A DNA stretch of 59,122 nt, counting the filler. It is 3 parts of 3 records of this genome, joined end to end, with 100 filler letters (N's around TTAATTAATTAA, not from the genome) between each part and the next. Parts side by side here need not be neighbours in the genome. Positions count along the whole stretch, not along the records: positions 43,120 to 59,122 come from DRR723986_9363; 2 more parts are not named here. One strand, given 5' to 3'. Of this stretch, positions 28,818-59,122 are shown in pieces. A program made the translations under genes and the position numbers. Position 1 is the first letter of the stretch, and the number at the start of each line of letters is the position of its first letter. The notes beneath the pieces are model-generated. The model had not been told where the DNA came from. It did not search any database and worked only from the letters and a program-made list of their open reading frames with translations.

Positions 28818-28827
28818 GCGGCTCTCA

Positions 28828-29789: not shown

Positions 29790-29808
29790 AGTCTTCTCCA
29801 GTAAGAAA

Positions 29809-29838: not shown

Positions 29839-29870
29839 GATGTCGTGAATCCTTAGGCGATTGTGAGGGC

Positions 29871-30866: not shown

Positions 30867-30889
30867 GGTTTAGGTTGAGGAAGAGTTGG

Positions 30890-32911: not shown

Positions 32912-32980
32912 GTTGTCCTTTCATGGCACGAACCACGGAGGTTGGCAAAGTTGAAATACCTGCATGAAAGGGATTGAAAT

Positions 32981-33007
32981 GACCCGGGCAATCAACAGGC
33001 CCGGGTC
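32981..33007 (-). terminator. Hairpin after the transporter/hydrolase operon
   Basis: GACCCGGGC-N9-GCCCGGGTC. Confidence 0.5.
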
Positions 33008-33014
33008 GATCATG

Positions 33015-33407: not shown

Positions 33408-33462
33408 GGATAATTCCTCCTGTTGCATGATGGATGGGGTGAGTGGTGGTGGAATTGGTCGG

Positions 33463-34134: not shown

Positions 34135-34171
34135 GACAGGCTCCTTCATTCGTTTCTCAAATGTTTGTTGA

Positions 34172-35320: not shown

Positions 35321-35335
35321 GTTGGGTCTCCCGAT

Positions 35336-36127: not shown

Positions 36128-36130
36128 GGC

Positions 36131-36991: not shown

Positions 36992-37103
36992 GTCGTGGTC
37001 CGTTCGGCCCCGCACACGGGGCGTTTGATGTCTGTGTGAAAACGCCCCGCCATCGGGGAGAAAGGGTGATGGCGGGGAATAAGAGCGCCTTCAAAGGAGA
37101 GGG

Positions 37104-38216: not shown

Positions 38217-38385
38217 TTTCGGCTCCTCCCTTGGTGGATGAAGGGAGTATTCGGGCTGGTCGCCGCATCAACAATCGAGCAGATTTCAGCAAGTCCACAG
38301 TTTTTCTCAGCCTTTCAGAGGCGTGACATTCAGCCTTAACTTGCATTGAGAGGGCGCCAGAGTCGTATGGCGGGAGATTCGCCGC

Positions 38386-39321: not shown

Positions 39322-39347
39322 GGGGTCGGTCCTCCTCCAAAAACCAG

Positions 39348-39373
39348 TGGCCCCTCCACTATGGGAGGGGCCA
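39348..39373 (-). terminator. Hairpin after the sugar ABC permease
   Basis: TGGCCCCTCC-N6-GGAGGGGCCA, followed by CTGGTTTTT on the minus strand. Confidence 0.6.
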
Positions 39374-39393
39374 TCCTTTTCCTGATCTTGTGA

Positions 39394-41954: not shown

Positions 41955-42958
41955 CAGTTGGCGTAGTTGGACAGCAACTTGTCCAGCAGCGCCTGATCGG
42001 CCTTGCTGGCCAGAACCGTCGGCGTATAGGCAAAGCTGGGTTCGACGTCGCGCACCGCATTCAGTGCCAGATCGACGATATTGGCGCCCAGCTCGTTAAT
42101 CAGGATCGCAGCCGAGGCGCGATAGGCACCGCCATCATTCACCGCGCTCAACCCTTCGAGCGAGCCGTCCTGACCGCCCACGAACATCGTGTCGGGATTG
42201 GCACCCGCCAGCCGGATCGCGCGCAGCGCACCCACCGCGGCGTCATCCGCCATGCCGATGATGATGTCGAGATCGGGGTGCTGTTGCAGCACGGTTTCAG
42301 CCACGCGCAACCCGTTGGTCTGGTCGGCAGCGTCCTGCTCGGCCACAACCGTGATGCCGTTTTCGGCAAAGATCCGGGTGACTTCGGTCCAGCGCGGGCT
42401 GAGCGACGGCAGCGGTGTCAGCGTGGTCACTAGAGCCTTGGCGTCGTTCACACCATTGGCTTTAACCCAATCTACGGCGGCCTGCGCCACGATCTGACCC
42501 GACTGTGCGTGATCAAAGCCCACGAACCCGTCAGATCCGTCCATCTTGCCCAGATAGGTCAGCCATTTGATGCCCTGCGTCTGTGCCTGACGTTGCAGCG
42601 GCTGCAGCGCGGTGGGTTCAATCGGCAGCACCACGATGGCGTCCACGCCCAGCGTGATCCAGCCCTGGATCGCGTTGATCTGCTGTTCCAGATTGTTGCC
42701 TTGGGTGTTGTCATGCAGCACGGTCACGCAACCCAGCTGGGTCGCGCGCTCATCCGCGAACCGGCGCACTTGTTTGACGATGGCGACTTCGGACACTGAA
42801 TGGCTGTAGGCGACCTGATAGGTCTTGCCGCCTTCGCAGGCATCCGACACGGCGGTACGGATTTGATCGATGGTGACATCTTTGATATCGGCGGCCTGAG
42901 CGCCCGCGCCCATGGCCATCGCCATGGTCAACGCCAGTGATTTGGTAAGTTTCTTCAT
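41954..42958 (-). CDS. Sugar ABC transporter substrate-binding protein (RbsB-like)
   Basis: Signal peptide; GVDAIVVLP, FVGFDH, ADDAAVGA, VGGQDG. Confidence 0.9.
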   Translation of the reverse strand: MKKLTKSLALTMAMAMGAGAQAADIKDVTIDQIRTAVSDACEGGKTYQVAYSHSVSEVAIVKQVRRFADERATQLGCVTVLHDNTQGNNLEQQINAIQGWITLGVDAIVVLPIEPTALQPLQRQAQTQGIKWLTYLGKMDGSDGFVGFDHAQSGQIVAQAAVDWVKANGVNDAKALVTTLTPLPSLSPRWTEVTRIFAENGITVVAEQDAADQTNGLRVAETVLQQHPDLDIIIGMADDAAVGALRAIRLAGANPDTMFVGGQDGSLEGLSAVNDGGAYRASAAILINELGANIVDLALNAVRDVEPSFAYTPTVLASKADQALLDKLLSNYAN

Positions 42959-43665: not shown

Positions 43666-44988
43666 CTAGGCGGCTCGCTTCTGGGCTTGAGGCGAGATGA
43701 GACTAAGGATGCGATCGAACTCATTGGCGTTGGAGAAGTTAATCACAATCTTGCCGCGGCCCTTGGCGGACTGCTTAATCTCGGCCTTCGTGCCAAGAGC
43801 AAGTCGCAACTGCTGCTCGATCGAAGCAATCTGTGCGTTCTTCGGCTTCCGGCCACCACCCTGACCACTGGGGAGAATTCCGTCTTCTTGAGCAAGACGG
43901 TCGGAAACACGACGTTCGGTCTCGCGGACACTCCAATGCTCGGACTTGATCTGATCAGCAAACGCTATCTGCTGCTCATCGTCGCCCAACGGCAGAAGCG
44001 CTCGGGCGTGTCCGGCTGTGATGCCGCCCGACTGCACAGCAGCCTGCACCTTCTCAGGAAGCTCCATCAGACGCATCAAGTTGGCGATGGTACTGCGGTC
44101 AATCTTCAATCGCTTTGCCAAATCATCCTGCGTGCATTTATGCTGATCAATGTATCGCCGGAACGAAAGCGCTTTTTCGATCGGGTCGAGGTCTTTACGC
44201 TGCAAGTTTTCAACAATTGCCAACTCAGCAACCAAACGATCGTCGGCCTGGCGAACCTCAGCTCGGATCGTTTTCAGTCCGGCGTGGATCGTCGCTCGCA
44301 AACGACGTTCACCTGAGATCAATTGGTAGCGATCACCGACCTTGCGGACTAGGACAGGCTGAAGCTGCTTGTGCTCACGAATGCTTTCCGCGAGTGCCGC
44401 AATTTCCTCTTCGTTGAATTTCCGCCTTGGCTGAAACGGATTGTTATCGATCTCGTAAACGCTCAACTGAAGCGCTTCACCGGCTACGGCGCTCGAGGTG
44501 TCGCTCTTGGGCTGTTTTGCACTGTGCTGTTTTACACTGGGCTGTTTTGCACTGGGCTTCTCTGGGCGAGTCGAAGATGAATCGGCTGAGCTGCCTTTGG
44601 CGCTAGCAGATCGATCAAGGGGCACTGAACCAGTCACCTGCTTGGCTGAAGCGGTTTCGCTGCGCCCAGTGGTGGTGCTACGGCCGCTGGCGGTTGATGC
44701 ACCTGAGCTACTCAATGTGGGCTTGGATGCTACCGGCTTGGATGTATTTGAAGTCGCTGCACTGGAAGGTTTTGCACTCGAGCTTCCTGCGCTCGAACGC
44801 CCTGCACCGGTTTTTGTTGAAGCCGCAGCAGGTTTCGCGGAAACTGATGACACGGCAGCAGTGCTAGCTTTGGCAGCGGAAGCACCGACAGCGGGAGTTT
44901 CAACCGCGCCGTCGACGATCTCATCTTCTTCGAGCGGCGTTCCCAACAGTGCAGCAAGGCCGCGTCCAAGGCGTCGATCTTTAGTCAC
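43666..44988 (-). CDS. parB: ParB/Spo0J chromosome-partitioning protein with long low-complexity N-terminal linker
   Basis: LGRGLAALL, NPFQPRR, LISGERRLRA (arginine patch), VENLQRKDL, HTH RSTIANLMRL. Confidence 0.96.
   Translation of the reverse strand: MTKDRRLGRGLAALLGTPLEEDEIVDGAVETPAVGASAAKASTAAVSSVSAKPAAASTKTGAGRSSAGSSSAKPSSAATSNTSKPVASKPTLSSSGASTASGRSTTTGRSETASAKQVTGSVPLDRSASAKGSSADSSSTRPEKPSAKQPSVKQHSAKQPKSDTSSAVAGEALQLSVYEIDNNPFQPRRKFNEEEIAALAESIREHKQLQPVLVRKVGDRYQLISGERRLRATIHAGLKTIRAEVRQADDRLVAELAIVENLQRKDLDPIEKALSFRRYIDQHKCTQDDLAKRLKIDRSTIANLMRLMELPEKVQAAVQSGGITAGHARALLPLGDDEQQIAFADQIKSEHWSVRETERRVSDRLAQEDGILPSGQGGGRKPKNAQIASIEQQLRLALGTKAEIKQSAKGRGKIVINFSNANEFDRILSLISPQAQKRAA
44509..44558. 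repeat. 15-bp coding tandem repeat in the parB linker (KPSAKQPSVKQHSAKQP)
   Basis: gggctgttttgcact gtgctgttttacact gggctgttttgcact gggct. Confidence 0.85.
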
Positions 44989-45727
44989 GTTCCAGTACCT
45001 CCATGCATAGTTCTACGTAGGCTCGCGAGCCTCGGGAACGCGGCGCGTAGTCCATTACGCTTGTTCCATGGCTAGGAGCTTCAGAGACGGCGACATCGCG
45101 AGGTATGACGGTATCGAAAACGATATCGCCAAAGAACTCTCGGACCTCTTCGTCTACTTCGTGGGTCAGCTCCAGTGACGGATCATACATGGTGAGTAGG
45201 ATTCCGCCAAAGGTCAATCTGCCGTCACCGTGTTGCATTACCTTACGAATTACATGAATCATCTGCGTGAGCCCTTCCATCGCGTAGAACTCGCACTGAA
45301 TTGGCATCAACACTTCCGTACTAGCCGCAAGAGCAGCTTGCGTCAGTTGCCCAAGTGAAGGTGGGCAGTCGATGATCACGAAGTCGTAGGAGGCCATGCC
45401 TGCGTCGAGATTCTGTCGCAAGATGGCCGAGTCGCTTTGTTCGCCGCGTTCGATCCGGTCCACATCCACAAAGGATCGGCTGCCGGGAAGGAGCGTTAGA
45501 TTTGGCCAAGAAGTTTCGACAAGACTGTCTTTCAGTGCAGTTGATAGCAAAAGCGGGTGGCTGGCCGACGGCTGCGCGCCAACTCCACTGGTTGCATTGC
45601 ACTGCGGATCAAGGTCAACGAGCAGCGTTTGTTGTCCCGCGCGAGCGAGCCCGACGGCCAAGTTGACCGCTGTGGTCGTTTTTCCGACGCCGCCTTTTTG
45701 ATTTGCTACACAGATGATCCTTGCCAT
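44981..45727 (-). CDS. parA: ParA/Soj partitioning ATPase
   Basis: NQKGGVGKTTT, DLDPQCNAT, IIDCPPSLG, EAPSHG; overlaps the parB start. Confidence 0.96.
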   Translation of the reverse strand: MARIICVANQKGGVGKTTTAVNLAVGLARAGQQTLLVDLDPQCNATSGVGAQPSASHPLLLSTALKDSLVETSWPNLTLLPGSRSFVDVDRIERGEQSDSAILRQNLDAGMASYDFVIIDCPPSLGQLTQAALAASTEVLMPIQCEFYAMEGLTQMIHVIRKVMQHGDGRLTFGGILLTMYDPSLELTHEVDEEVREFFGDIVFDTVIPRDVAVSEAPSHGTSVMDYAPRSRGSRAYVELCMEVLERD

Positions 45728-45929
45728 CGCCCCATTGTCGTCAAAATCAAGTTTTTGCGGAACGGCAATCTTTCCACTTCCGCCAGCCAACGGAAATCAT
45801 TGCGGTAATTTTTTGCGCGGCATGAGCGTGTCAAAATTGCACGTTGGCTGCAGAACACGATGGTGGAAGGAATTCGTATACTGCCAATTCAAGCATTTCG
45901 TTTCCCACTCGTTGCCCATGTGAAGATCG

Positions 45930-46820
45930 ATGACTACCGAAGACGCAGTTGCCTGGCTTCCCGCCGAGAAGGATTACTCACTCGGCCTGCTCGATGGAAA
46001 GCTGGTTTGCCAAAACCCGAAAGGCAAGAAACTTGCCTCGGTGCCCAAGTGGCTCAAAGAGACCGACGGTGCCGAAACACTACTGGCCCTAGCTGATTGG
46101 CTCGACGAACACAGACTTGAATGCCTGCATACCGTTCAGCGGTGGATGCTTGGCTCGCTGACTGTTCCCCGCGATGTTCTCACCAGTGTTTGGCAAGACG
46201 ACCAATGGCGTGCCGCACTAGAGAATATGGTTGTCGTGCCAGCCGATGCTAAATTGAAAGCGGATTTCGAGAACACCGGAATTCTGCGAAGCGTCGACGC
46301 TCGACGAGGCCTCGGGGTGGTTGATTTGGACGGCGAAACGCAGTGGTTCAAGTCGCCCTGTGCGATGATTCCCCATCCAATCTTGATCGGTGACCGTGAG
46401 GAGCTTCGCGAACTAGCCAATGAACTAGAGCTCAAGCAGGCGGTCGACCAACTTTATCGCGATGTTTTTGAAGCAACCAAGCAGCAGCAGGAACTCTGGC
46501 AGATCTCTGAGTTCTCTGGAGGCCATTTCGAACAACTTGCCTTTGCTTTGTCGCTCTGCCGAAGGCTCGGCTACCCTGTGCGAGGCGGTTACGCGACGTG
46601 TCGAGTGCACGAAAACGGCCAGGATTTCCAAGCACGCTATTACGTCGGAGACGACGCTCCCGATTACCCCGCTTACACAGGGGCTCTAATCTTCGTCGAC
46701 TCGAAAGAACGCCCAGTGAAGATCTCTGAACTAGGGCAAGTAGCATTCAGCGAAGGGATGAGAATGGCTTCGGCGATCTACGCCAAGCGCAAGGTCGAGG
46801 AATCGGAGCAAGACTCATGA
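45930..46820 (+). CDS. Stand-alone DUF4132 domain protein
   Basis: GKKLASVP, IPHPIL, LKQAVDQLYRDVF, VAFSEGMR motifs typical of DUF4132 (MolR/YehI-type). Confidence 0.78.
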   Translation: MTTEDAVAWLPAEKDYSLGLLDGKLVCQNPKGKKLASVPKWLKETDGAETLLALADWLDEHRLECLHTVQRWMLGSLTVPRDVLTSVWQDDQWRAALENMVVVPADAKLKADFENTGILRSVDARRGLGVVDLDGETQWFKSPCAMIPHPILIGDREELRELANELELKQAVDQLYRDVFEATKQQQELWQISEFSGGHFEQLAFALSLCRRLGYPVRGGYATCRVHENGQDFQARYYVGDDAPDYPAYTGALIFVDSKERPVKISELGQVAFSEGMRMASAIYAKRKVEESEQDS

Positions 46821-49800
46821 ACAAACAACTACTCGAGGGCACTCTGGCCGCTGGTGGCATGTTGCCCGCAAAGGCAAAAGTTGACGAATCAATCAGTGAG
46901 TTTGTTGTCGCCCGAACCTACTCCGGTCCAGCACTTGGGAACCGCAAAATCGTCCGCCTGGGTGCAGAGCGTCTCGGTCCTGCAGAAGATCTAGCGCTCG
47001 AATTCTTGGGGCTCACCAGCGAGGGTGAAAGCCAGCCAATCGCCAGACAGGGCCGTCGAGCGTTGGGGTTCGCAAGCTGGGCGCTCATCAATCACCCCAA
47101 GACCGCCCGCTACGCCCTTGGCCTGGTAAAACGAATGAAGGCTGCCGCTCGCAAGGCAAAATCCAAACCCGGACACGCTTGGGATGCGTTCGTGGAGATG
47201 GCATCCGAATTGAATGTGTCCGTTCGGGAATTCTTGCCACCATACTGGGAGGAAGTTGCGCGGACGTACCGAGATGTCGGCAGTTCGACCTATGCGGGCA
47301 GAGCGATCGGAAAGGCACTGGACGCGGAACGAGTTCATGCACTGGATGTCGATCCAGCGCGTCGACGTGACGCGATTCTGGAGTTCGCACTCAGCGGCTG
47401 CTTGTCCGCAAAAGCCCTTGGCGAATACATCCGAGACTTACCCAATCACTTCGAGCCCGACGAAGCCTTTTCAACGTTACGCGACCTCTTAGTTCGTCGC
47501 ACGCTCGGCGGCATGCCACCACTGCCAACGACGATCAAGGAGATCACAAAATTTGCCAAGGCTGCCGGGCTGTCTGCTGACGACGAGGTCGAGTCACTGC
47601 TGTGGGACATTATCAAATCACCAGCGATGAGCCGTGCGCCGAAGCAGTTTTGGACCTCCGCAAGCAAACACGTCAAGAAACTGGTGCAGGAGAGTGATGA
47701 ATTCGGCTTGTGGTTGATTGTTCACACAAGTCTTGATTCTAGCTATTACGATGTCAGCCCTGCCTGGAGTTGGTTCGAGTTTCTTGAACAGTGGGACGTT
47801 CTCCCTTTGCTGTCAAAGCCGTCCAGCGAGTATCCCGACGGCGTCGAACTACCCGGTGGTCATGCGGGATGGCTGTCGAAGCTCATCTGTGTCGACTCTC
47901 CAAGTCCTCCTCGTGTCTTCGAGATCATCGACCTGTGCACAGATCAGATACTTGCATCCGGCAAAACGGTAACACTCGGCAAGAGCGGGTATAGAAACGA
48001 CATCGATGTTGATGTTGTCGAGCGTTTACTGGCATTAAAAATTCCTGTCGAATGTACCGACGGGCTAAACCTGGACTTCGCCGATTGGACGTTGGCTGAA
48101 ACCGATCATCCCCTTCGCAACTCTTCGCTGGAAAATCTCCTGCAGCATGATGAACTTCGTGAGATGTTCAAGGCGCAACTTCCTGTACTGTTGCCTTGGG
48201 GCGTCCGTGGCGTCAAACGTGGGATGTATGGCCGTCCCGACACCGCCGCAAAACGCTCCTTCGACGATGCCGCCGAAGCTCATGAACCGATTCATGCGAT
48301 TTGGAAGGAGTTCTTGGATCAACACCTCGACAAGGTTGAGAATGGAGCACTCGTCGATTTTGCGGAATCTGCAGCGACTCTTTCGAGCTGCGTTCGGGCG
48401 GCAACGATTCGACGATTTCCAGATGTGCTGAAACGTCTCAAAAAAGTGGATCCGGCCGCAGCCCTTCAGCGGTCCCTTTCTATTGGAGTCATCGATGAAT
48501 ACGGCTGGAAAGAACTAGACGATGCGGCTGACCAAGAGCCGATGCCGCCGCTGCATCGCCGAATGCCACGAATTGCATTGGTGTTCCCATATGTAATGGC
48601 ATTTAGCGATACGGGGGTGCGACAAATTGGCCCCGACGGCCTTGCTGCCATTTCCGACTGGACAATGCGTAGCGATTCGGAGCTGGCGGCGTGCTATCCA
48701 ATTGGAGGTGACGCGCTGGTCGTCTATCAAGATTCAAATACTTACCAACGAAAAGTACTTTGGCTGAATACCGCGACACAACCGGTAGACTCCAACCAAT
48801 ATTTCTGGCACGATCGCCCACCAAAAATCGCGGAATTCGACCAAGGATTATTCGCCGGAAATCGCATCCTCGAAGTAGGCCAGACCAAAGTCCCGTCAAC
48901 ATGCCATTGGCTGACCGACGGTGACAGATACTGGGCCGCATTGGCGGAGCAGTGGGAATGGGATTACGCGACTCAATCCTCCCAATTCAGCACGCCAGAA
49001 AAGCTGGTAGAAGTTGACCCACTCACCGGCAAACGCGGGCGAAACTCAGTCCCGCCCATCTTGGAATCGAATTTACCAGCAGGGGCGGTCGTCCGCTGGA
49101 AGCACAGCGATCTTTGCGTTGCACCAGACTGCGTGCAGAATTCACCGCTCGGAATGTCAAAAAACCTAATTGGTGGTCGCGTCGCGGCACTACGTGATAA
49201 GAGCCACCAATTTGTCGGCGTGGATGGTCGTGAGTGTCGCTTGGAGAAGAGCACTGGGTTCATACCGGTAGCGATGGTTGATCAGCCAGCGGGAAAGAGC
49301 AGTTGGATCATCTGCCAATCCGGACAAATCATCGAAGCCGAATCCGGGCTCGCTTTCGCCACAACGGACTATAAATACGCGAGCGGACAACCAACAGAAT
49401 TGCCCCTGATCTTTTGGAACTATTTCACGGTTCGCTGTCCGAAGAGTTCGCAGCGACTCAGAAAAACGAAACTTGCGGATGCAAAGAAGCTGCTAGAGGC
49501 GGGCAAAATTACGCATCAAGCCGAAAAGGTGCGCGAAGATAAACGGAAGCGTGATCCAAAACGTCGGGCTTCCTTGGAAGCTGCCAAGAAGTTGTTGCCC
49601 AATGCGCCCGAACGACTGATAAAGGGAGTCGCTCGAATCGGCAAGGTCGCGGCCATTGAAGCTGGAACCATTGAGAGAATTATCGAGCGTGCAGAAGCCA
49701 AACCAAGGCTAGAATCGGTCACCCCCGGGAAGGCCGCCGCAGATTCGAAATCAGATATTCAGTCCGATTCCGAGACGCTCGCCACGTATGCGGAGGGTTT

Positions 49801-51898
49801 TTCAGAATTGCAAATCCCGCTGCGTGACCAAACCGATCCAACCCACAGCTACCGGTCAACGGGTTTTGATGGCTACCACCTTGTCGCCCTGGTGAAATTC
49901 CTCAAAGGCGATGCGTATGACCATTTGCCTGGCGGTGGAGCCGACATTCTGGCGATGCTCGACGACATGCCGTCGGCCGCATGGACAGCATTTTGGAACA
50001 GCACAGCAAGTCTGAACAAAAGCGATATTGAACTTAAGAAACGAGTTCGCGGGCAGTGGCTCGTTGCGCTGAAATTCTGGGCCGCCAGCGGTATTGCCGA
50101 TATCGGCGGGTCAATGAACGTGTACGTTTCCGAACTGCTGGATGAGTCTGAGCAAAAGCGGCTATCCAAGATTGGACGTTACCCTACATCGGAAAACACG
50201 ATCGTGTTCCGTGAATCAGGAATTAGCTATGTCGTTTATGCGATCGAGAACTACGGCGAAAACAGAGTCCTGGTCCTAGCCCACACCGACAAGAAATCAG
50301 GTTGCAAACCGCCTCGCAAGTACTCCATTGCTGAGGAAATTGAACTAGAACGCCGCTGGGACAGCAAAGCGATCCGCAAGTTTGTTGGTGCAGTTGAGCA
50401 GATCGATACGCTGCCCTTACCCAGCCCGGAAATGCTGGCCGCAACTAGCAAAAAACTGGGTATGGCACCGGTGGAAGTAGGTTTGCTGTGGCTGGCGAAC
50501 ATGCGTACCGTTCGCTACGGCCAAGAGAAACTCACCAAGGAAATCCGGACGCACTTTAAGTGGAAACTTGTCGAAATAAAACAAGCCATTGCAGCCTTAG
50601 ATGCTAGCCCTCCGGTCCCCAGCTACATGAGTGAGCATTTAGTTGCCGACCCTGCAGCTTGGGCCAAAATGCCGGAGGGTCCCGCTTTCGACCGCTTTGT
50701 TGAATCAATCGCAACGAGCCGCGAAGATCGGCTTGCGATTCCGGTGGAAATCATCGCAAAACTACAGCGGCTGTTCTCTAACTACTACGGCTATGGAAAA
50801 CTCGACCTCGATTCCGTCGAGGAACTGCTCGTGTCGCCTGCAGATAGCGAACTTCTTACACCCAGCAAGGCAACGTTTCACCAGTCCAAGGAACGCTACG
50901 AAACCTTGACGGCCAAGGGTGGAGTTCCCGCTGGAGAGCTGAGCTTCCTACAGAAGCTGTTTCGAGCTGCCTGCCTAATCAACTACGAATTGCCCGTGGG
51001 TGATCCTATCCGTCAGAAGCTACCGGATCTTCTCGCGGCGATGCAGAACTTTGTTCAATCCCCTAAAACGAGTCTTCCGTTTGGCGGCCCGTATGCAGCC
51101 AAGGACTGGGGGGAAGACTTTGACGCCGACGAAGCCCTAGCACGTTATGAAAAGCTGATTGGCCCGAGCAAGAAAAGCAAAGACGGGCTGCGGACCTTTG
51201 ACGATGGTCTGATCTACGGAGTGCTGTTGGCACCAGCGGTCATGTTACACTTTCGTCCTTCGGCCCTCGACAAGTCTCCCGACGCATATGACCGACTGCG
51301 TGCAATCGCGGCGGCAACATTCTCGTGGGAGGGCAGCGCCGAGGATGAACTGGACTTCGTCGACTTCGTTCGCGACGTCAACAGCGATGAATGTTCACAA
51401 CTACAGGAGTCCAATCGATCTCCGACCTCACCAGAGGGCAGTTGGGAACAGAATCCGCTGACATCTTGTCCAAAGCTGGTCGCTTCGGCCGCGAAGAAAT
51501 TGAAGACTAGTGACAACGCCGCCTGCCTGTATCTCCAAGTCTTGGCATTGCACGATCCAACTACTGCGAATATCAAACGGTGGAACGAATGGTCGGCGAA
51601 GCAGATCAAGACTGCTACCGAGGAATTGCTTGAGAAGCAATTACTCGTCGAAGCAAAACGTAGTCGAGCTGGACGGACTTTCTTCCTTCCCGGCGGATGG
51701 GAAGAACTCAAGCTGCCCAATCTGCCGCTTGAGTCATGGAAACTGACCATGTTTGGTTACGAGAATACAGATACCCTCCGCGGTGCGAGTGCCGAAGTCA
51801 TCGTTTGCCCTCGCACCGTTACTAGTCAGTTTGAACTAGCTTGGCAGCGTGTCCAAGATGGCGATGCACCGCGTTACAAAGAAGCGGGCAAGAAGTAG
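46817..51898 (+). CDS. Large hypothetical protein (1693 aa) of the Yeh-like operon
   Basis: Long uninterrupted ORF with ATGA overlap to DUF4132; conserved-looking termini (VVARTYSGPALGNRKIVRL; LYLQVLALHDPT...KRSRAGRTFFLPGGW). Confidence 0.85.
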   Translation: MNKQLLEGTLAAGGMLPAKAKVDESISEFVVARTYSGPALGNRKIVRLGAERLGPAEDLALEFLGLTSEGESQPIARQGRRALGFASWALINHPKTARYALGLVKRMKAAARKAKSKPGHAWDAFVEMASELNVSVREFLPPYWEEVARTYRDVGSSTYAGRAIGKALDAERVHALDVDPARRRDAILEFALSGCLSAKALGEYIRDLPNHFEPDEAFSTLRDLLVRRTLGGMPPLPTTIKEITKFAKAAGLSADDEVESLLWDIIKSPAMSRAPKQFWTSASKHVKKLVQESDEFGLWLIVHTSLDSSYYDVSPAWSWFEFLEQWDVLPLLSKPSSEYPDGVELPGGHAGWLSKLICVDSPSPPRVFEIIDLCTDQILASGKTVTLGKSGYRNDIDVDVVERLLALKIPVECTDGLNLDFADWTLAETDHPLRNSSLENLLQHDELREMFKAQLPVLLPWGVRGVKRGMYGRPDTAAKRSFDDAAEAHEPIHAIWKEFLDQHLDKVENGALVDFAESAATLSSCVRAATIRRFPDVLKRLKKVDPAAALQRSLSIGVIDEYGWKELDDAADQEPMPPLHRRMPRIALVFPYVMAFSDTGVRQIGPDGLAAISDWTMRSDSELAACYPIGGDALVVYQDSNTYQRKVLWLNTATQPVDSNQYFWHDRPPKIAEFDQGLFAGNRILEVGQTKVPSTCHWLTDGDRYWAALAEQWEWDYATQSSQFSTPEKLVEVDPLTGKRGRNSVPPILESNLPAGAVVRWKHSDLCVAPDCVQNSPLGMSKNLIGGRVAALRDKSHQFVGVDGRECRLEKSTGFIPVAMVDQPAGKSSWIICQSGQIIEAESGLAFATTDYKYASGQPTELPLIFWNYFTVRCPKSSQRLRKTKLADAKKLLEAGKITHQAEKVREDKRKRDPKRRASLEAAKKLLPNAPERLIKGVARIGKVAAIEAGTIERIIERAEAKPRLESVTPGKAAADSKSDIQSDSETLATYAEGFSELQIPLRDQTDPTHSYRSTGFDGYHLVALVKFLKGDAYDHLPGGGADILAMLDDMPSAAWTAFWNSTASLNKSDIELKKRVRGQWLVALKFWAASGIADIGGSMNVYVSELLDESEQKRLSKIGRYPTSENTIVFRESGISYVVYAIENYGENRVLVLAHTDKKSGCKPPRKYSIAEEIELERRWDSKAIRKFVGAVEQIDTLPLPSPEMLAATSKKLGMAPVEVGLLWLANMRTVRYGQEKLTKEIRTHFKWKLVEIKQAIAALDASPPVPSYMSEHLVADPAAWAKMPEGPAFDRFVESIATSREDRLAIPVEIIAKLQRLFSNYYGYGKLDLDSVEELLVSPADSELLTPSKATFHQSKERYETLTAKGGVPAGELSFLQKLFRAACLINYELPVGDPIRQKLPDLLAAMQNFVQSPKTSLPFGGPYAAKDWGEDFDADEALARYEKLIGPSKKSKDGLRTFDDGLIYGVLLAPAVMLHFRPSALDKSPDAYDRLRAIAAATFSWEGSAEDELDFVDFVRDVNSDECSQLQESNRSPTSPEGSWEQNPLTSCPKLVASAAKKLKTSDNAACLYLQVLALHDPTTANIKRWNEWSAKQIKTATEELLEKQLLVEAKRSRAGRTFFLPGGWEELKLPNLPLESWKLTMFGYENTDTLRGASAEVIVCPRTVTSQFELAWQRVQDGDAPRYKEAGKK

Positions 51899-52026
51899 TT
51901 ATCGTGGCACCTGACCGTTCGACCTGGCGTTGTTTCACCGAGACAGCTTGGTTTTTTGGCTGGTCGGACAAAGAGAGCCGCTTGGCTGCGTAGCCCTAGA
52001 ATCCAATTGTTACTGAGGAAGAATTG

Positions 52027-53238
52027 ATGGCCAAGAAGAAGGCGGTAGCCAAACCTGCCACGGCTAAATCGGGCAACGCGCAAGTCAGGCCTGTTGCTGA
52101 CTCAGGTGGGGTGGATTCTGAGAAGTTGCAAGCACCGCCGGCGGAAGTTCGCTACGCTGCCGAACTCCAAGTCCTGTCAGGGGCTGACAACAATCCTCGC
52201 CCAGACGGTTGGTCTTTGTCTCCTCAGGCTGTTGTCGACTTCATTTGTGGCACCGACGGTGTAAAGATCGGGAGAACCAAAAGTGAAGCGATGGTGATCC
52301 CAGAGAAATTTGTCGGCCCGCGCGAAATCGTGCAGCGGTGCGTCGTCACACTGGCTGGCGAACGAGGCCTGATGTTGGTCGGAGAACCAGGCACAGCGAA
52401 ATCAATGTTGGGAGAACTGCTGGCTGTAGCTATCAGCGGCACCGGAGCCCTTGCCGTCCAGGGAACAGCAGGGACTACTGAAGACCAGATCCGATACGGC
52501 TGGAACTACGCGATGCTTCTGGACAAGGGGCCGTCTCCAGAAGCCATGGTGCCGTCGCCCGTCATGCAAGCGATGAAGACAGGCAAGATCGTCCGCTTTG
52601 AAGAAATCACTCGCTGTCTGCCAGAAGTGCAGGACGCCGTTATCTCCATCCTTAGCGAACGACGCCTGATGGTGCCCGAGCTGGGAGAAACAGGAACAAG
52701 CGTTTTCGCGGCTCCTGGATTCGCAATCGTTGCTACCGCCAATCTGCGAGACCGCGGAGTATCGGAAATGTCAGCCGCATTGAAGCGCCGTTTCAACTTT
52801 GAAACAATTGCCCCGATTGCAGACGCCGATCGCGAGAAGCAGCTCGTTTCTCTTCGTGCGGCCGCAATGCTTGCACCGGCGGAGACGAAGATGGAAGTCG
52901 ACAGCGCTCTGGTTGACCTGCTTGTGCGAGTCTTTCGCGATCTACGCGAGGGGCGTACCGAAGAGGGCTGGCAGGTTGGGCGACCGAGCACGGTAATGAG
53001 CACCGCTGAAGCCGTTGCGGTGGCGACCGCCATTACTCGCGAGGGAGCATTCTTTCCGTCGGGTTACGATCCTATCTCCCGAATTCCCGGTCATATCCTG
53101 GGTGTCGTCGTAAAAGATGATGCAAAGGACCGCGAACGCTTGCTTGCCTACTGGGATGGTCCTGTTCGACGCAGGAGTCAAGAAGGTGATCCGCTTTGGA
53201 AACGCCTCAATGACCTGCGTGATCAGCTTGAAGAATAG
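52027..53238 (+). CDS. yehL: MoxR-family AAA+ ATPase, YehL subfamily
   Basis: LQAPPAEVRYAAEL, GLMLVGEPGTAKS (Walker A), TTEDQIRYGWNYA, KIVRFEEITR (Walker B), TANLRDRGVSEMSAALKRRFNF. Confidence 0.9.
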   Translation: MAKKKAVAKPATAKSGNAQVRPVADSGGVDSEKLQAPPAEVRYAAELQVLSGADNNPRPDGWSLSPQAVVDFICGTDGVKIGRTKSEAMVIPEKFVGPREIVQRCVVTLAGERGLMLVGEPGTAKSMLGELLAVAISGTGALAVQGTAGTTEDQIRYGWNYAMLLDKGPSPEAMVPSPVMQAMKTGKIVRFEEITRCLPEVQDAVISILSERRLMVPELGETGTSVFAAPGFAIVATANLRDRGVSEMSAALKRRFNFETIAPIADADREKQLVSLRAAAMLAPAETKMEVDSALVDLLVRVFRDLREGRTEEGWQVGRPSTVMSTAEAVAVATAITREGAFFPSGYDPISRIPGHILGVVVKDDAKDRERLLAYWDGPVRRRSQEGDPLWKRLNDLRDQLEE

Positions 53239-53269
53239 TACACCTAAGTGAAGAGCGAGCGGATCGCCC

Positions 53270-56200
53270 ATGGTGCGACCAAGGCCAAACAATCAGGATG
53301 AGCTTCGAGCCCAGGCGGCCAGCGGCGCGAAACAGGCCATCGAGTCGACATCGCCACTGCTGATCGGCGTCCGTCATCATTCCGCTGTCTTGGCCAGATC
53401 AATCGACAAACTGCTAGACGATTTTCAGCCGAAGTCGCTGCTTGTCGAATTGCCAAGTGATTTGCAAGACTGGATCGAGTTCATCGGCGATCCATCCACG
53501 ACTGCCCCAATCGCGCTTTCAATCGTTACCTTGCGCGGTGATTCGTATTTTTATCCTCTCGCGGACTTTTCGCCTGAGCTGGTGGCGATTCGCTGGGCCC
53601 AACGCAATGCCGTGCCCGTCGTAGCCTGCGACTTGGCCATCTCAGCCATCGATCCAACTGAAGACGATAGCGAGACGGAAGAATCCCAAAGGCCGAGCGC
53701 AGACTCCGCGCCCGAACAACCGAAATCGTTGCGCCTGGACGACATTCTTCGGACGGCGGGGGACGAAGAAAGTGGAGCGCTCTGGCAACGTATGGTCGAA
53801 TCGCCTGGGCTTCATGAATCGGCAGAAAAATTGCGGCGGGCGGCACTATTATTTGGTTGGGTCGTCCGGGAGACTGCAGGCCCTGTTTCGCGTCGTGATT
53901 TGATTCGCGAAGCGACCATGCGACAAGCGATCCGCGCCGCCGACAAACGAAGCTGTGCCATCGTTGGCAGCTTCCATTCACCGGCCCTGACGCCCGAGTT
54001 GGTTGCTAGCCAGCGGGATTTAGACACGGAACTACTCAGCAGGATCACCACCGATGAAGCAGGTGTTTCGCTGATCCCGTACAGCTTTGAGCAGTTTGAT
54101 CAACGCAGCGGATACCCAGCCGGTATTTTGGATCCGCACTGGCATCAACGTGCGGTTCAGTCAGAGAGCAGAGAACAATTTGACGCTTCGATAGTCGACC
54201 TAGCGACTGAGATTTGCCGCAACATGCGTCGCGATGGACATGTCGCGGGAACGCCGGACGCTACCGAGATCATTCGCATGACTCGCGATTTGGCTCGCCT
54301 GCGAGGGTTGAAGGCTCCTGGACGAGGCGAGTTCGTAGAAGCCGTGCAATCATGTCTTGTCCAAGGCGACTTGCATGGTCGCGGACGAGCCGTCTCTGCA
54401 GCTTCGTTTCCTGTATTGGTTGGACAACGGCAAGGCACGATCACTGATCGAGCTCCGCGATGTGGCTTGGTTGTGAGCCTGGAACGTGACCTCCAGCACC
54501 TAGGGCTACCCGGAGAAGACTCGTTAACGTCATCTCATCGCCCAGCTAGCAAGAATCGTGGTTTTGCACGACGAAACGCCGGGAACTTTGTACTGGATCA
54601 TGAAAAGGAACTGCGACTCGACGTACTTCGCAATCCGCGTGACCGGGCAAAGAGTGTCGTTCTGGAACGGCTGTGCACGGCGGGCATTCCCTATGCAAGA
54701 CGCCTGGATGAAGGCGGTACGAAGAACCGAGAGAATTTGATCGAGCGTTGGGCGGTTGCGTGGCAACAATCAACGTCGGCCACCGTAAACTCACTTGCTC
54801 GCTACGGCACCACGCTGGAACAAGTTGTTGCAGCTATCATGCGACGCTCTGAAGATGCAAAGAGCGATCACGCCGCGACGGATGCAATCGAACTACCGCG
54901 AGTCATTCTGCGACGGTTGGCTGTCGCCAGTAAATGTGGGCTTGCGGAAACCCTGCAAGCCAACGTAGCACGCATTGATTCAGAGTTTCGCACTTCGGCT
55001 AGTCTCACCGAATTGGTGGACGCCGCCTCGCAATTGCGACGCATTGCAACTGGACATAGCCCAGGTGCCCCGCTGTCGGCCGAGGATGCTTACCCGCCAA
55101 TCTTGCGGCACCTCAAACTGCCTGGACTACAGTTGACGGTGGACAAGCTATTCCGTGATTGCTTCGAACGACTTGCCGATATTAGTGGATCCAACAAAAC
55201 AGAAGACGTGTACGCCCTGCGAGACCTGCTAGCTCTCGTTGGCGGCAAGGGCCAAGAAGACAGCGGGCAACCAGCGGGCGTCCCGCAGCTTGCATCTTGG
55301 TGCCGCCGGACGGTTCGCGACGGAAGCAATCTCATGGCAGGAGCTTGCACAGCCGCGCTGCGTTTACTGGAAATTGCACCTGAGGAGCAATTCCTGGCGT
55401 CGACCAGTGGTTGGGTTACGGCGGCTGCAGGAACCGTGGAGCGGAAGATGCTGCGTCATCGCCTTGCCGGAGCGACCCACATACTTTTGTCACATATGCA
55501 AAATGATCCGCAACTGCTTGGTGGAGTAAGCAACGCGATTGCGGATTTGGACGACGATCGCTTTCTACAGCGTCTGCCATCCCTTCGCGGAGCCTTCACC
55601 CAGCTTGCTCCATCAGATCGTCAACGGCTACTCGAGACGCAGCTCTCGGTGCTCGAAATCGAGGACTCACAACTCTCCGATGCACTGCCAGCAGAACAAA
55701 TTGCGCTCCTTCGCACGGCTGACTTGGCCGGATTGCATGCGGTCCATCAGGTGCAGGAGTTTGCAAACCTCCTTTCCGACAACCTAGATTCGGGCCTCTC
55801 CCATGATGGAACCTCACAGGTTTCCGAACGGGTCGCCGATACTCACGCGGGAAAGCCTCAAGACACTGCCACTCAGGCGCCCATCCGAACTCGCACCACG
55901 GACGCGCATACTCGGTTCTCACTTGCCGATCGCTGGCGACTGATTCTAGGCACAGAACCGGAGAGCCAAGACGATCGAGTCGTTGCATCGGCTCGTTCGC
56001 TGGACGACCTGTTTACGCGAGGCAAAGGCGAAGGGGCTCGAGGGGACTTAGGCGGCGGTTCATCGAGGGGTGGTCGGGAACGCCCTCGGCCGACAACACT
56101 GCAGTGGGCCGATGAGCTTGAAGAACTATTCGGAAGCGATGTGTGCCAAGAGGTCCTCGGAGAATCGGCTGCAAGCGGAAATGCGGCTGCGGTCTCATTG

Positions 56201-57025
56201 CTTGATCCCGATTCCGTCACGCCTTCGGTCGATCTGCTGCAGCAAGTACTGCAGTTGGCCGGAGCGGTTCCGGAGGCCAAGACGGAACAACTGCGGCGAA
56301 TCGCTCGGCGAATCACCGAGCAACTTGCTGAAGAGCTATCCGTTCGACTGAAGCCCGCAACGCACGGACTGGCAACTCCTCGTCCGACGCGAAGACGTAG
56401 CAGACGCCTCAACTTGCGACGCACGGTGACTGAAAATTTGAGTCGCTGCCGCCGCGATCCCCAGGGAAGGCCTAGATTAATCGCAGAAGACTTGATCTTT
56501 GATTCTCAAGCCCACCGCAGTATGGATTGGCACCTGACTTTCGTCGTCGATGTCTCTACGTCGATGTCGGCGTCGGTGATTTACAGCGCGCTGACTGCCG
56601 CGATTTTCGATTCACTTCCAGCAGTGTCTGTGCGGTTTCTTGCATTTAGCACTGAGGTCATCGACTTGAGCGGCCAAGTCGGAGATCCACTCTCACTGCT
56701 GCTGGGCGTGCAGATTGGCGGTGGAACAGACATCGGACTTGGACTGCGAGCGGCAAGAGCTGGCATCAGTGTCCCGACGCGTTCACTTGTTGTGGTGGTC
56801 TCTGATTTTGAAGAGGGCGTGTCGGTTGGCCGCATGTTGGCTGAAGTCAGGGAGTTGGTCGATTGTGGTGTCAAGTGTCTCGGCCTGGCCGCACTCGACG
56901 ACGGCGGTAACGCTCGCTTCCACGGCGGTCTTGCACAAATGGTCGCCAGCGCCGGAATGCCAGTGGCCGCTGTTAGCCCCGACCGACTTGCCAAGTGGGT
57001 GGGAGACCAGATTCGCAATGCCTAA
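53270..57025 (+). CDS. Fusion of YehM-like (DUF5682) and YehP-like VWA domain protein
   Basis: IGVRHHS, LLVELP, FSPELVA, SGYPAG in the N-part; RWRLILG from about 55931; MIDAS DVSTS, GGGTDIG, VVSDFEEG. Confidence 0.85.
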   Translation: MVRPRPNNQDELRAQAASGAKQAIESTSPLLIGVRHHSAVLARSIDKLLDDFQPKSLLVELPSDLQDWIEFIGDPSTTAPIALSIVTLRGDSYFYPLADFSPELVAIRWAQRNAVPVVACDLAISAIDPTEDDSETEESQRPSADSAPEQPKSLRLDDILRTAGDEESGALWQRMVESPGLHESAEKLRRAALLFGWVVRETAGPVSRRDLIREATMRQAIRAADKRSCAIVGSFHSPALTPELVASQRDLDTELLSRITTDEAGVSLIPYSFEQFDQRSGYPAGILDPHWHQRAVQSESREQFDASIVDLATEICRNMRRDGHVAGTPDATEIIRMTRDLARLRGLKAPGRGEFVEAVQSCLVQGDLHGRGRAVSAASFPVLVGQRQGTITDRAPRCGLVVSLERDLQHLGLPGEDSLTSSHRPASKNRGFARRNAGNFVLDHEKELRLDVLRNPRDRAKSVVLERLCTAGIPYARRLDEGGTKNRENLIERWAVAWQQSTSATVNSLARYGTTLEQVVAAIMRRSEDAKSDHAATDAIELPRVILRRLAVASKCGLAETLQANVARIDSEFRTSASLTELVDAASQLRRIATGHSPGAPLSAEDAYPPILRHLKLPGLQLTVDKLFRDCFERLADISGSNKTEDVYALRDLLALVGGKGQEDSGQPAGVPQLASWCRRTVRDGSNLMAGACTAALRLLEIAPEEQFLASTSGWVTAAAGTVERKMLRHRLAGATHILLSHMQNDPQLLGGVSNAIADLDDDRFLQRLPSLRGAFTQLAPSDRQRLLETQLSVLEIEDSQLSDALPAEQIALLRTADLAGLHAVHQVQEFANLLSDNLDSGLSHDGTSQVSERVADTHAGKPQDTATQAPIRTRTTDAHTRFSLADRWRLILGTEPESQDDRVVASARSLDDLFTRGKGEGARGDLGGGSSRGGRERPRPTTLQWADELEELFGSDVCQEVLGESAASGNAAAVSLLDPDSVTPSVDLLQQVLQLAGAVPEAKTEQLRRIARRITEQLAEELSVRLKPATHGLATPRPTRRRSRRLNLRRTVTENLSRCRRDPQGRPRLIAEDLIFDSQAHRSMDWHLTFVVDVSTSMSASVIYSALTAAIFDSLPAVSVRFLAFSTEVIDLSGQVGDPLSLLLGVQIGGGTDIGLGLRAARAGISVPTRSLVVVVSDFEEGVSVGRMLAEVRELVDCGVKCLGLAALDDGGNARFHGGLAQMVASAGMPVAAVSPDRLAKWVGDQIRNA

Positions 57026-58907
57026 CTCAAGATTCTCACCCTCCGACCTTCCCTCCATTGCGGCGGATGTTTTGGCAAGTTTTGCAGAACAAGCCCCCTC
57101 GCGCGTGAAGAAACGCCTCGACAAGAACCCTCAAGCGGCAGAAGAATGGTCAATTCAAACTGGCGATGGACAATTCACAATCGCGGCTGGAGAAGAGTCG
57201 GTTACCCTTCGACCGAACGCGCAAGGCTGTCTCGATGCTCCGGACACGCTTGAGTGCACTTGCCTGTTATCGCCGAAGTGCTTTCATATCCTAGCCATAG
57301 TTTCGCTGTTGAAGGCTTCCGTTGGCGATACGCCGAAGGAGGCCGCTGAGGATCCAGGCGACCAAGAATCCACTGCGCAGAATGATCAAAATCACAGCCA
57401 CTCATCTGAAGCCGAAGTTGCTTTGTCTGGCCAGCAACGGCGCATAGCAGAACGCGTTCTGGTGAATCTTGAAAGCGTCTTGGCAGGCGGCGTTCGCTCC
57501 GCTGGCATTGTCCAGCAATCGGACATCATCAGAACAGCCCATGATTGCCGCTGCGAAAAACTGATCAATTTGTCGAATAGTCTGATGCGCGTTGCCGAGG
57601 GGATCCACCGTATTCGCTCACGCGACGATCATGCCAACAGCAACGAACTGCTGGGCGATTTTTGCCGTGCTCTTCATCAGGCGAAGACCACGATGCGCCG
57701 GGAGACGGCAGCGCCGGATTTTTTAGGCTTTACTCGCCGTCCATTTCATCCGGTAAAGCTCTCTCGTCTCGATGCACTATGCTGTCAACCAATCCTCACG
57801 CTCAGCGGCTATGCCGGCATCTGTATCTATTTTGTCGGCAACGATGGTCAAGTGTATACCGTTGTTCAATCACGTCCTGGCGACAGTTCGCATGCACACG
57901 AAGCGTATCAAGGTGGCGTCGATCTAGGCGGACTTACGATTGCAGCAAGAGAGTTATGTCGAGCGAGCTTGGATGTGCAGAACCTGACTGCATCGCCCGA
58001 CGGCCGACTTGGCAAGGGGCAAAGGACGCGATGGGCGGTACGCAAGACTTCCGCAACTCCGGCTGAGCATGGTTGGCTCAGTGCGCCTTTTCCGCAACAG
58101 CTCAAACGCGTCGTCGATGCTGCAAACTTAGGGATGTCGTCGGAAATTGGTAGCTCTCCGCTCGCGACGGCTGACTCGCTATCCATGCGCCCCGGCTGGG
58201 ATCTCGTTTGTGTCCGCGGCAGACTAGTTGGCAGCCACGGTACGTCGCTCCTTCTTGAGCTTGACCAGCAATCGGATGATCCGCCCGCCACGTTGAAACT
58301 CGTGCTCCCCAGCGACAGTGAACACCTGCGTGCATTCGCCAATTTTCAGCTTCTGGCCACCAAGCTTGGTTTGAGGTTGTCTGTCGTTGGGCGTATGCAA
58401 CTAGACGCGGCCGGTTCGATAAACGCCCTTTGCATTTGGCCGGACACTGACGACCACTTCGCGGTTTCCGTACCTGAAAAACTGGAGGATTGCTACCAAT
58501 TGGCGTTTGACACAATCGAACCGCACGAAATCCGACAGCTCGACACAGCGCACACCGCTGCTCCCGAGCAGGTGTTCACCGCCTCCCGTCAGCTATCTAC
58601 AGCCGCTCAAACGTCGACACTCGGCACAGGTCTGCCTGCCGATGGCTTAAGAAATCGCATGCTTGGTCTCCTGCTGGGTGGTCGGCGAGCGTTTAATTCT
58701 GTGGCTGACCGGACTCTAGCCAAGGAACGGCAAGCCTTAACGCAATTCAACCTACCAACTGCGGCCTCGCTCCACCGTTGTTTGCAATCGGCCTCTGAGT
58801 CGGGCAATGATCTGCTGACGGTCTTCGCAGCCTGCGACTTATTTCTTTCTGCAGCCACAACCAGCCGGAATTCCACGCTTTGGTCAAACCTATTCGCATC
58901 TGAGTAG
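57018..58907 (+). CDS. SWIM zinc-finger protein (YehQ-like)
   Basis: CTCLLSPKCFH (CxC-x5-CxH); ATG 57018 overlaps the upstream stop. Confidence 0.8.
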   Translation: MPNSRFSPSDLPSIAADVLASFAEQAPSRVKKRLDKNPQAAEEWSIQTGDGQFTIAAGEESVTLRPNAQGCLDAPDTLECTCLLSPKCFHILAIVSLLKASVGDTPKEAAEDPGDQESTAQNDQNHSHSSEAEVALSGQQRRIAERVLVNLESVLAGGVRSAGIVQQSDIIRTAHDCRCEKLINLSNSLMRVAEGIHRIRSRDDHANSNELLGDFCRALHQAKTTMRRETAAPDFLGFTRRPFHPVKLSRLDALCCQPILTLSGYAGICIYFVGNDGQVYTVVQSRPGDSSHAHEAYQGGVDLGGLTIAARELCRASLDVQNLTASPDGRLGKGQRTRWAVRKTSATPAEHGWLSAPFPQQLKRVVDAANLGMSSEIGSSPLATADSLSMRPGWDLVCVRGRLVGSHGTSLLLELDQQSDDPPATLKLVLPSDSEHLRAFANFQLLATKLGLRLSVVGRMQLDAAGSINALCIWPDTDDHFAVSVPEKLEDCYQLAFDTIEPHEIRQLDTAHTAAPEQVFTASRQLSTAAQTSTLGTGLPADGLRNRMLGLLLGGRRAFNSVADRTLAKERQALTQFNLPTAASLHRCLQSASESGNDLLTVFAACDLFLSAATTSRNSTLWSNLFASE

Positions 58908-59122
58908 CCCCGTCTCGCCGCCGCAATTGGCGCGTCATTTTTCCAAACATCGCTTCGTGTCGAGCGGAAACGGCTGTGCAACCGGACGATTCTCAGCAAT
59001 CCACCGCAGTTCTCCGTAAGCCGGAACAAACAGCCCAGCAACGCGCAACTACAAACTAGTGCGTCTGACTCCGCCCCCATGTGGAACTCGCCTCGCGTGA
59101 TCCGGACTGCATAGGTTCTGTG

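Follow-up and report, generated by a model that had tools for sequence, protein, structure and literature searches.

What is the function of the five-gene operon that occupies positions 45930-58907 of the stretch of DNA analysed here (59,122 nucleotides including filler, made up of three joined parts; hereafter, the window)? The operon encodes a MoxR-class AAA+ ATPase of the YehL type together with four other proteins, and is a distinct, widespread variant of the uncharacterized YehL-type MoxR/VWA/SWIM/DUF4132 system, defined by a family of giant proteins without a Pfam model and by a fusion of DUF5682 with a VWA domain. The five genes probably encode one self-contained, ATP-driven YehL-type machine, for which DNA-associated, damage-responsive remodelling is tentatively the most likely role; the specific mechanism is much less certain.

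An intact operon with the components of a YehL-type system

Five intact, co-oriented, tightly packed open reading frames (ORFs) were found on the plus strand of 45930-58907 in the ORF listing, with the following products (lengths in amino acids, aa):

45930-46820, plus strand: small DUF4132 protein, 296 aa (Pfam DUF4132, E 5.5e-22)
46817-51898, plus strand: giant predicted scaffold protein, 1693 aa, without a Pfam family, modelled with AlphaFold
52027-53238, plus strand: YehL-type MoxR AAA+ ATPase, 403 aa from ATG (AAA_5, E 5.3e-35)
53270-57025, plus strand: fusion of DUF5682 (YehM-like) and VWA_CoxE (YehP-like), 1251 aa (Pfam)
57018-58907, plus strand: SWIM-finger protein, 629 aa from ATG (CxCx5CxH motif)

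An earlier note on this DNA had described the same five ORFs with the same two overlaps, and had recognized a multi-subunit system in which DUF4132 is minimal, YehM and YehP are fused, and a giant protein is present as an additional subunit; the ORF listing, Pfam, BLAST, and the finger motif all bear this description out. The overlap between the DUF4132 and giant genes is 4 nucleotides (nt; 46817-46820), that between the fusion and SWIM genes is 8 nt (57018-57025), and the gap between the giant and ATPase genes is 128 nt. The ATPase ORF can also be read from TTG at 52024 (404 aa), the likelier start being the ATG at 52027, which lies behind a GAGGAAG box. The longest form of the SWIM ORF covers 56715-58907 (730 aa from TTG); the start at ATG 57018 (629 aa) is supported by agreement with the starts of the homologues. 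A repeat search within the operon returned only short, chance-like pairs, and an Rfam search of the whole window gave no match.

The natural comparison is with the Escherichia coli cluster yehF-yehH(molR)-yehI-yehK-yehL-yehM-yehP-yehQ, which likewise encodes, on one strand, a YehL-type ATPase, DUF5682, a CoxE-type VWA protein, and upstream DUF4132, and the last gene of which also encodes a SWIM protein. Unlike in E. coli, YehM and YehP are fused here, and DUF4132 is a stand-alone protein of 296 aa instead of a part of the 1210-aa YehI, with no BLAST match to YehI, YehH, or the rest of the cluster. The giant has no detectable relative there (BLAST E 0.3 or worse), and the similarity of the SWIM protein to YehQ is confined to the finger (E 2.6). 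In a further departure from the MolR/YehF-type partners, Pfam detected no WGR domain among the five proteins, even with the E cut-off relaxed to 5 for the giant and the SWIM protein. YehL is one of seven MoxR subfamilies (PMC3893208). The E. coli yeh cluster has been annotated for decades, and in the searches made no function was found reported for YehL. As the earlier note had supposed, systems of the yehLMPQ type are functionally uncharacterized: no functional study of any Yeh-type system was found in the searches of the open-access literature.

The five genes form a unit in three phyla

The variant with the giant is common. In a survey that took one genome per species, 545 of the 601 pattern-matching stretches among the matches listed (of ~1200 estimated) encode a relative of the giant, as do about half of the sampled Streptomyces genomes. 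For locus comparisons with the five window proteins as tblastn queries, 80 loci with the giant were kept, 19 of which run into a contig end (17 according to the script rule, plus L013 and L024, each with less than 700 bases of upstream flank and ~2 kb or less downstream). All five genes are present in 57 of the 61 loci with enough flank, which come from Planctomycetota, Actinomycetota, and Myxococcota. Among the 80 loci, 51 have the five genes in the order seen in the window, five (Pirellula-like) have the SWIM gene divergent upstream, and one (L044) has the ATPase trio ahead of the DUF4132-giant pair. Two other loci (L025 and L032) have no ATPase trio despite 9-10 kb of downstream flank, and two from Kitasatospora (L054 and L060) have no SWIM match at E 1e-5.

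The co-occurrence of the five genes in other genomes is far beyond chance. The DUF4132 gene lies directly 5' of the giant gene in the related loci (tblastn), and these two make up the tightest pair of the cassette. Among the 605 flanking ORFs, no sixth recurrent gene was found; because no family recurs beyond 7 of the 80 loci, all of these actinobacterial, the five genes constitute the whole unit. The actinobacterial loci have the same architecture as the window, in agreement with the earlier note.

The cassette is patchy and not part of a vertically conserved core. Profile matches to the giant were found in 4 of the 301 sampled genomes of the phylum and in 16 of the 201 sampled genomes of the family; planctomycete carriers include Rhodopirellula, Stieleria, Neorhodopirellula pilleata, and Gimesia maris. 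In Streptomyces, 98 of 201 genomes match at E up to 1e-10, 82 of them with best E below 1e-180, and the remaining matches include fragments and stand-alone paralogues.

A further suggestion of the earlier note, that the cassette had been transferred from actinobacteria into a planctomycete-like host, fails for recent transfer. In a tree of YehL (68 rows, with the window and E. coli YehL added to 66 loci; a quick LG+G4 search that left out two loci with ORFs shorter than 330 aa), Planctomycetota, Actinomycetota, and Myxococcota form one clade each (support values of 98, 95, and 100, respectively), the myxococcal clade being counted with one metagenome-assembled genome (MAG) labelled Proteobacteria that is nested among them. 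The window ATPase nests in Pirellulaceae with Neorhodopirellula and Stieleria, sequence identities follow taxonomy, and the GC content of the operon is the same as that of the neighbouring genes, with no step. The root of this tree is the long E. coli branch, and the tree bears on recent, not old, inter-phylum transfer.

In the window, the operon lies beside parA (44981-45790) and parB (43666-44988), which are divergent from it and upstream (Pfam). The earlier note was right about this adjacency, but it carries no meaning: because none of the 80 related loci has ParA or ParB near the cassette (E up to 1e-8), the position beside parAB is a chance feature of the present genome. The same result bears on the possibility that the cassette works constitutively, and not in response to stress, in the chromosome organization or cell cycle of large-genome bacteria with complex life cycles. 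Such a factor would suit the spread of the cassette over Streptomyces, Kitasatospora, Dactylosporangium, Myxococcota, and planctomycetes with large genomes (7.7 to 10.2 Mb where sizes were shown), the predicted DNA-binding features described below, and the position beside parAB in the window. This reading is very unlikely, given that parAB is absent from all 80 related loci, that the cassette was not found in 185 of the 201 sampled family genomes and so cannot be essential to the life style, and that the actinobacterial promoter is a damage-response promoter, as shown below. As for parB itself, its ORF encodes 440 aa, with ParB_N starting as late as residue 174, which implies a long N-terminal extension unless translation actually begins further downstream.

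A damage-response promoter motif heads most actinobacterial operons

A clue to function comes from the regions upstream of the actinobacterial orthologues. The pattern TGTC[AG]N3-N7-9-TAN3T is present upstream of the DUF4132 gene, mostly near -72, in 36 of 39 actinobacterial loci, against a background of 45 in 6558 280-nt windows of the same loci. The motif-bearing loci belong to Streptomyces, Kitasatospora, Dactylosporangium, Kineosporia, and one MAG; the typical promoter in Streptomyces and Kitasatospora is TGTCAGTG-N8-TAGAGT, and variants occur in Dactylosporangium, Kineosporia, and the MAG. This is the pattern of the RecA-NDp promoter, the consensus of which is tTGTCRgtg-8nt-TAnnnT (PMC5656591). 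A promoter of the RecA-NDp type precedes numerous DNA-damage-response genes in Actinomycetales (PMC5087735), and PafBC binds and activates it (PMC6789036, PMC8223512). Because none of 37 loci has a copy of the motif between the giant and ATPase genes, a single promoter appears to head the operon.

The actinobacterial operons thus resemble members of the PafBC/RecA-NDp regulon in carrying its promoter motif; the link is a regulatory one, borne by the orthologues, and does not concern membership in a protein family. The earlier note had proposed a stress or conflict machine, and it is the stress part of this proposal that the promoter favours. In the tractable Streptomyces, it turns a function that was unknown into an idea that can be tested.

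A damage-inducible promoter would also suit a reaction to phage-induced damage, and the cassette could be an anti-phage or conflict system in which the giant, with its predicted solenoid and propeller, senses an invader and the MoxR/VWA pair licenses an abortive or restrictive response. If true, this would add a large new defence family. Several observations are consistent with it: occurrence is patchy, as the phylum and family counts given above show; the flanks differ between loci; a large repeat sensor combined with an NTPase resembles the conflict systems described in PMC7159879; and the ATPase shows a sub-threshold match to bpMoxR (PF20030; 20.9 bits, below the cut-off of 27). Indeed, the MoxR-vWA-beta-propeller ternary conflict systems delineated by the Aravind group similarly combine MoxR, VWA, and propeller proteins in one operon. 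In the present case, however, the propeller is predicted to lie inside the 1693-aa scaffold, and none of the five proteins matches PADLOC-DB 2.0.0 (E up to 0.01). PADLOC matches among the flanks were found in only 5 of 128 ORFs (from 25 of the 80 loci), all to generic domains (one to a Ser/Thr kinase, one to a HEAT repeat, and three weakly to PDC-M43B, HerA/mad8, and CARF), and the genes around the operon in the window are ordinary. Searches of the subunits turned up no nuclease, no toxin, and no effector domain of another kind, which also leaves the effector that the earlier note had supposed to be assembled or activated by the ATPase/VWA pair without a candidate. Unlike typical defence genes, the ATPase forms one clade per phylum, and about half of the sampled Streptomyces genomes (98 of 201) carry the giant. 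We therefore consider a conflict system unlikely, and the defence part of the earlier proposal gains nothing from these searches.

A separate observation concerns a gene for an HTH_11-WYL regulator at 25810-26523 on the minus strand, ~20 kb from the operon in window coordinates, with the same domain make-up as PafB/PafC; it adjoins a DUF6880 gene (24142-25671, E 3.9e-164).

The giant protein as a predicted modular scaffold

The giant matched nothing in Pfam (up to E 5), NCBIfam, or PADLOC. The protein collection contains 67 full-length homologues, some of which carry the NCBI name 'DNA-binding protein'; identity is 37-44% in Pirellulaceae and drops to 32% in Gimesia and to ~27% in Streptomyces. 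The giant was modelled with AlphaFold as two pieces of 900 and 814 aa, each with a 39-sequence alignment. For residues 1-900, the predicted local distance difference test (pLDDT) is 88.0 and the predicted template modelling score (pTM) is 0.78; for residues 880-1693, pLDDT is 87.3 and pTM is 0.82. The giant models as a modular scaffold consisting of the following parts:

residues ~15-79: small alpha/beta domain (strands 15-17, 27-36, 45-50; helix 51-63; strands 67-71, 76-79)
residues ~85-575: predicted TPR/HEAT-like solenoid
residues ~586-850: predicted beta-propeller
middle part: variable, helical and alpha/beta in the model
residues ~1543-1684: conserved C-terminal domain, winged-helix-like in the model

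The most conserved part of the solenoid (residues 101-298) aligns with Get4/TPR structures (VIA; Z 10.5, root-mean-square deviation 5.3, 176 residues aligned), a Z value that by the tool's own caution falls in a range common for helical repeats. Foldseek matched the N-terminal half to VPS15 and Raptor, which combine HEAT and WD40 (E 1.8e-5 to 1e-4), and also to BamB and WD40 propellers; for the C-terminal half, no match was returned up to E 0.001. The extreme C-terminus (model residues 664-805) is comparable to MarR-type regulators, TrmBL2, RPA32C, and the DNA-binding domain of LexA (VIA), with modest Z values of 5-6.4 that lie in the range labelled by the tool as a common arrangement. Three invariant arginines, R1615, R1617, and R1620, sit on the predicted wing of this domain (alignment A1). 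A PDB profile search with the giant produced one chance match (E 0.67), and the ESM Atlas returned only its own family. This modelled layout offers guidance for the choice of mutants and fragments.

Several candidate identities for the giant and its apparent relatives were rejected. Derivation of the giant as a split or relative of YehI/MolR/YehF found no BLAST match and hhalign probabilities of 0.3 (YehI) and 0.1 (YehF, with the N-terminal domain of the giant), in a weak test that used single-sequence templates. The modelled order of strands and helix in the N-terminal domain also differs from that of the WGR fold. Streptomyces proteins that match only profile positions ~83-888 are not cassette giants, having no Pfam match and no DUF4132 or MoxR neighbours. 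Such stand-alone paralogues of the giant, 1533-1558 aa long and without the N-terminal domain, were observed in Streptomyces at L082 8316-12992 and L083 7945-12546. In four other Streptomyces genomes (G647, G620, G684, and G583), homologues in ORFs of ~1235-1263 aa still match profile positions 12-888, which points to a shorter version whose C-terminal half is reduced.

The DUF4132 protein and its basic tails

The small DUF4132 protein matches the whole Pfam model over residues 32-215 and is the best conserved subunit after the ATPase, with a mean column identity of 59% in an alignment of 35 sequences. Lys/Ala/Pro-rich, histone-H1-like N-terminal tails of 60 aa to more than 200 aa are present on the DUF4132 proteins of all nine Myxococcota loci (L029, L033, L034, L035, L038, L041, L047, L049, and L064), of L028, and of the planctomycete locus L026. 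For example, the tail in L026 contains 28 lysines in 76 residues, and that in L033 contains 22 in 83. An apparent fusion of DUF4132 with the N-terminus of the giant (P0077, 702 aa) was discarded: its DUF4132 part stops at residue 197, and the protein looks like a frameshifted call.

Hints of a link to DNA damage come from the DUF4132 family in other bacteria. In Deinococcus, depletion of the damage repressor DdrO strongly up-regulates drA0166, which encodes a DUF4132 protein, and dr2173, which encodes a WGR protein, and E. coli MolR is described as a member of the LexA regulon (PMC8533742).

The ATPase, its VWA partner, and the SWIM protein

The ATPase shares 47% identity with E. coli YehL over 371 residues (E 6e-105) and has the same motifs, namely, Walker A GEPGTAKS, Walker B IVRFEEI, and ALKRRF. 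With an AAA_5 domain, both Walker motifs, and closeness to YehL, it belongs to the YehL subfamily; NCBIfam comparison additionally showed weak GvpN and MadB similarities.

In the fusion protein, Pfam places DUF5682 at residues 46-994 (E 2e-131) and VWA_CoxE at residues 1025-1244 (E 1e-46). The N-terminal part resembles YehM (24%, E 5e-21), and the C-terminal part resembles the whole of YehP (34%, E 4e-49). DUF5682 and VWA are encoded in a single ORF in 61 of 62 loci, and all 60 aligned fusions keep the MIDAS motif (DxSxS, GGGT, SDFEEG). Also invariant in these 60 sequences is the N-terminal GVRHH[SA] motif of DUF5682; E60 and H236 are invariant too. Four of 28 members of the fusion family weakly match TraB_PrgY_gumN (PF01963; best E 0.0098), and the DUF5682 profile had no sequence match in the PDB; DUF5682 may be a metal-dependent hydrolase of a TraB/Tiki-like kind. 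A second DUF5682 gene was noticed in a cassette-bearing Pirellulales genome (G005:C7:105705-107942); with a 793-aa ORF, it is too short for the fused form, and this genome may hold two Yeh-type systems.

In the SWIM protein, the motif CTCLLSPKCFH occupies residues 80-90 (nt 57255-57287), and the CxCx5CxH pattern is present in 58 of 58 homologues. The Pfam SWIM model is weakly matched by 12 of 33 homologues (best E 0.0038), the window's own protein having no Pfam match even at E 5. Outside the finger, the protein belongs to no known family, and a PDB profile search returned nothing useful.

The pairing of a MoxR-class AAA+ gene with an adjoining gene for a MIDAS-bearing VWA adaptor is shared with NorQ-NorD, CoxD-CoxE, CbbQ-CbbO, RavA-ViaA, and BchI-BchD/CobS-CobT, and the expected action is the same, that is, ATP-driven remodelling of a bound target. 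The window system differs from these pairs in that its ATPase comes from another subfamily, YehL (PMC3893208), that DUF5682 is fused to the VWA domain, and that DUF4132, the giant, and the SWIM protein are three further subunits. The comparison raises the possibility of a dedicated maturation chaperone that inserts metal into, or assembles, one client complex, either the giant itself or an enzyme encoded elsewhere. NorQ-NorD, CoxD-CoxE, CbbQ-CbbO, RavA-ViaA, and the chelatases act in this manner (PMC9976466, PMC13036017, PMC3893208), and the CoxE type of the VWA domain and the weak GvpN and MadB similarities point in the same direction. Nevertheless, in contrast to the characterized pairs, no gene for an enzyme or other client recurs beside the cassette in the 80 loci, and the promoter, the H1-like tails, the winged helix, and the SWIM finger have no role in such a chaperone, which makes this explanation quite unlikely.

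A possible damage-responsive remodelling machine

Several lines of evidence underlie the role in DNA-associated, damage-responsive remodelling that we tentatively prefer. The conservation of the cassette and the intact Walker and MIDAS motifs speak for a working machine. The damage setting is suggested because the RecA-NDp promoter motif heads most actinobacterial orthologous operons, and is extrapolated from these to the planctomycete copy; the induction of drA0166 in Deinococcus is a hint at family level. Association with DNA is suggested by the winged-helix-like C-terminus of the giant with its invariant wing arginines, the H1-like tails on other DUF4132 proteins, and the 'DNA-binding protein' names of some giant homologues. 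In such a machine, DUF4132 and the giant would make up a sub-complex for sensing or recruitment, seated either on DNA itself or on a target bound to it. By analogy with NorQ-NorD, CbbQ-CbbO, and RavA-ViaA, the DUF5682-VWA protein would dock through its VWA domain on a YehL hexamer, and ATP hydrolysis would then remodel or extract the bound target. Metal-dependent hydrolase activity might reside in the DUF5682 part, and the SWIM protein might serve as a further DNA- or protein-binding adaptor. If correct, this role would add a new ATP-driven component to bacterial genome maintenance.

A number of observations weigh against the damage role. Three Nocardiopsis loci lack the RecA-NDp motif, many of the 36 loci that bear it are close relatives, and the promoter evidence is of sequence only. 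Neither the window nor any of the 23 planctomycete and 9 myxococcal loci has the motif. Nor do SOS boxes take its place: in a scan for CTGT-N8-ACAG, GAAC-N4-GTTC, GTTC-N7-GTTC, and a GAACA-N2-6-TGTTC variant, such boxes were found in 0 to 1 of 76 upstream regions and none in the window, and the planctomycete and myxococcal loci are free of them apart from one chance GAAC-N4-GTTC in L020. Among the upstream regions of the window and 20 planctomycete loci (L008, L011, and L026, which are near-copies or coding extensions, were left out), a dyad is common to at most 4 of the 21, the usual maximum in shuffled sequences (4 in 19 of 20 shuffles and 5 in one). For planctomycetes, and for this genome, damage regulation would thus be an extrapolation from actinobacteria. 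On the protein side, the Z values of the winged-helix comparison are modest, and winged helices bind proteins as well; the DUF4132 protein of the window itself lacks a basic tail; the proposal of a DUF5682 hydrolase rests on four weak Pfam matches among 28 members and an invariant pair of histidines; and drA0166 may lie outside any Yeh-type system.

A more specific version of the damage-responsive role, which we regard as a long shot, is that the cassette corresponds in bacteria to the eukaryotic Cdc48/p97-adaptor-protease machines, which free damaged DNA of proteins stuck to it. Here, a damage-induced MoxR motor would work with a VWA adaptor fused to a Tiki/TraB-like hydrolase, the winged-helix giant, DUF4132, and the SWIM protein would bring the motor to DNA, and DNA-protein crosslinks or stalled complexes would there be extracted or cut by the machine. 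If true, E. coli yehLMPQ would thereby gain a function as well.

Putative regulatory sites and other features of the window

Three sites around the genes of the operon may be involved in its expression:

45791-45929, plus strand: intergenic region between the divergent parA and the first gene of the operon, presumed promoter
51929-51957, plus strand: weak terminator-like hairpin with a T-run in the giant-ATPase gap (8 pairs, 3 of them G-C)
58916-58942, plus strand: terminator-like hairpin with a T-run directly after the last gene, a consensus match only

Upstream of the operon, a TATACT box resembling a -10 element was seen at 45877-45882 by eye only, and TATGAT/CATAAT-like boxes were seen, also by eye, upstream of the planctomycete homologues; a sigma-70 consensus scan at the head of the operon gave no match. 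The hairpin at 51929-51957 could possibly act as an attenuator between two sub-modules; the count of terminator-like sites in the region is not above that in shuffled sequences, and this hairpin is a lead only.

The other genes in the window are ordinary and encode, among others, a sulfatase, an ECF sigma factor, ABC transporters, and LysR regulators. An RadC-like JAB domain gene (6730-7131, E 2.1e-32) lies amid genes of unknown function. After a gene for an IS110-family transposase (27768-28817), the GC content is raised up to ~42000 (0.60, compared with 0.51-0.56 elsewhere), in a block that carries ABC transporter, LysR, and GDSL-lipase genes; the region 27768-42000 may be an acquired island.

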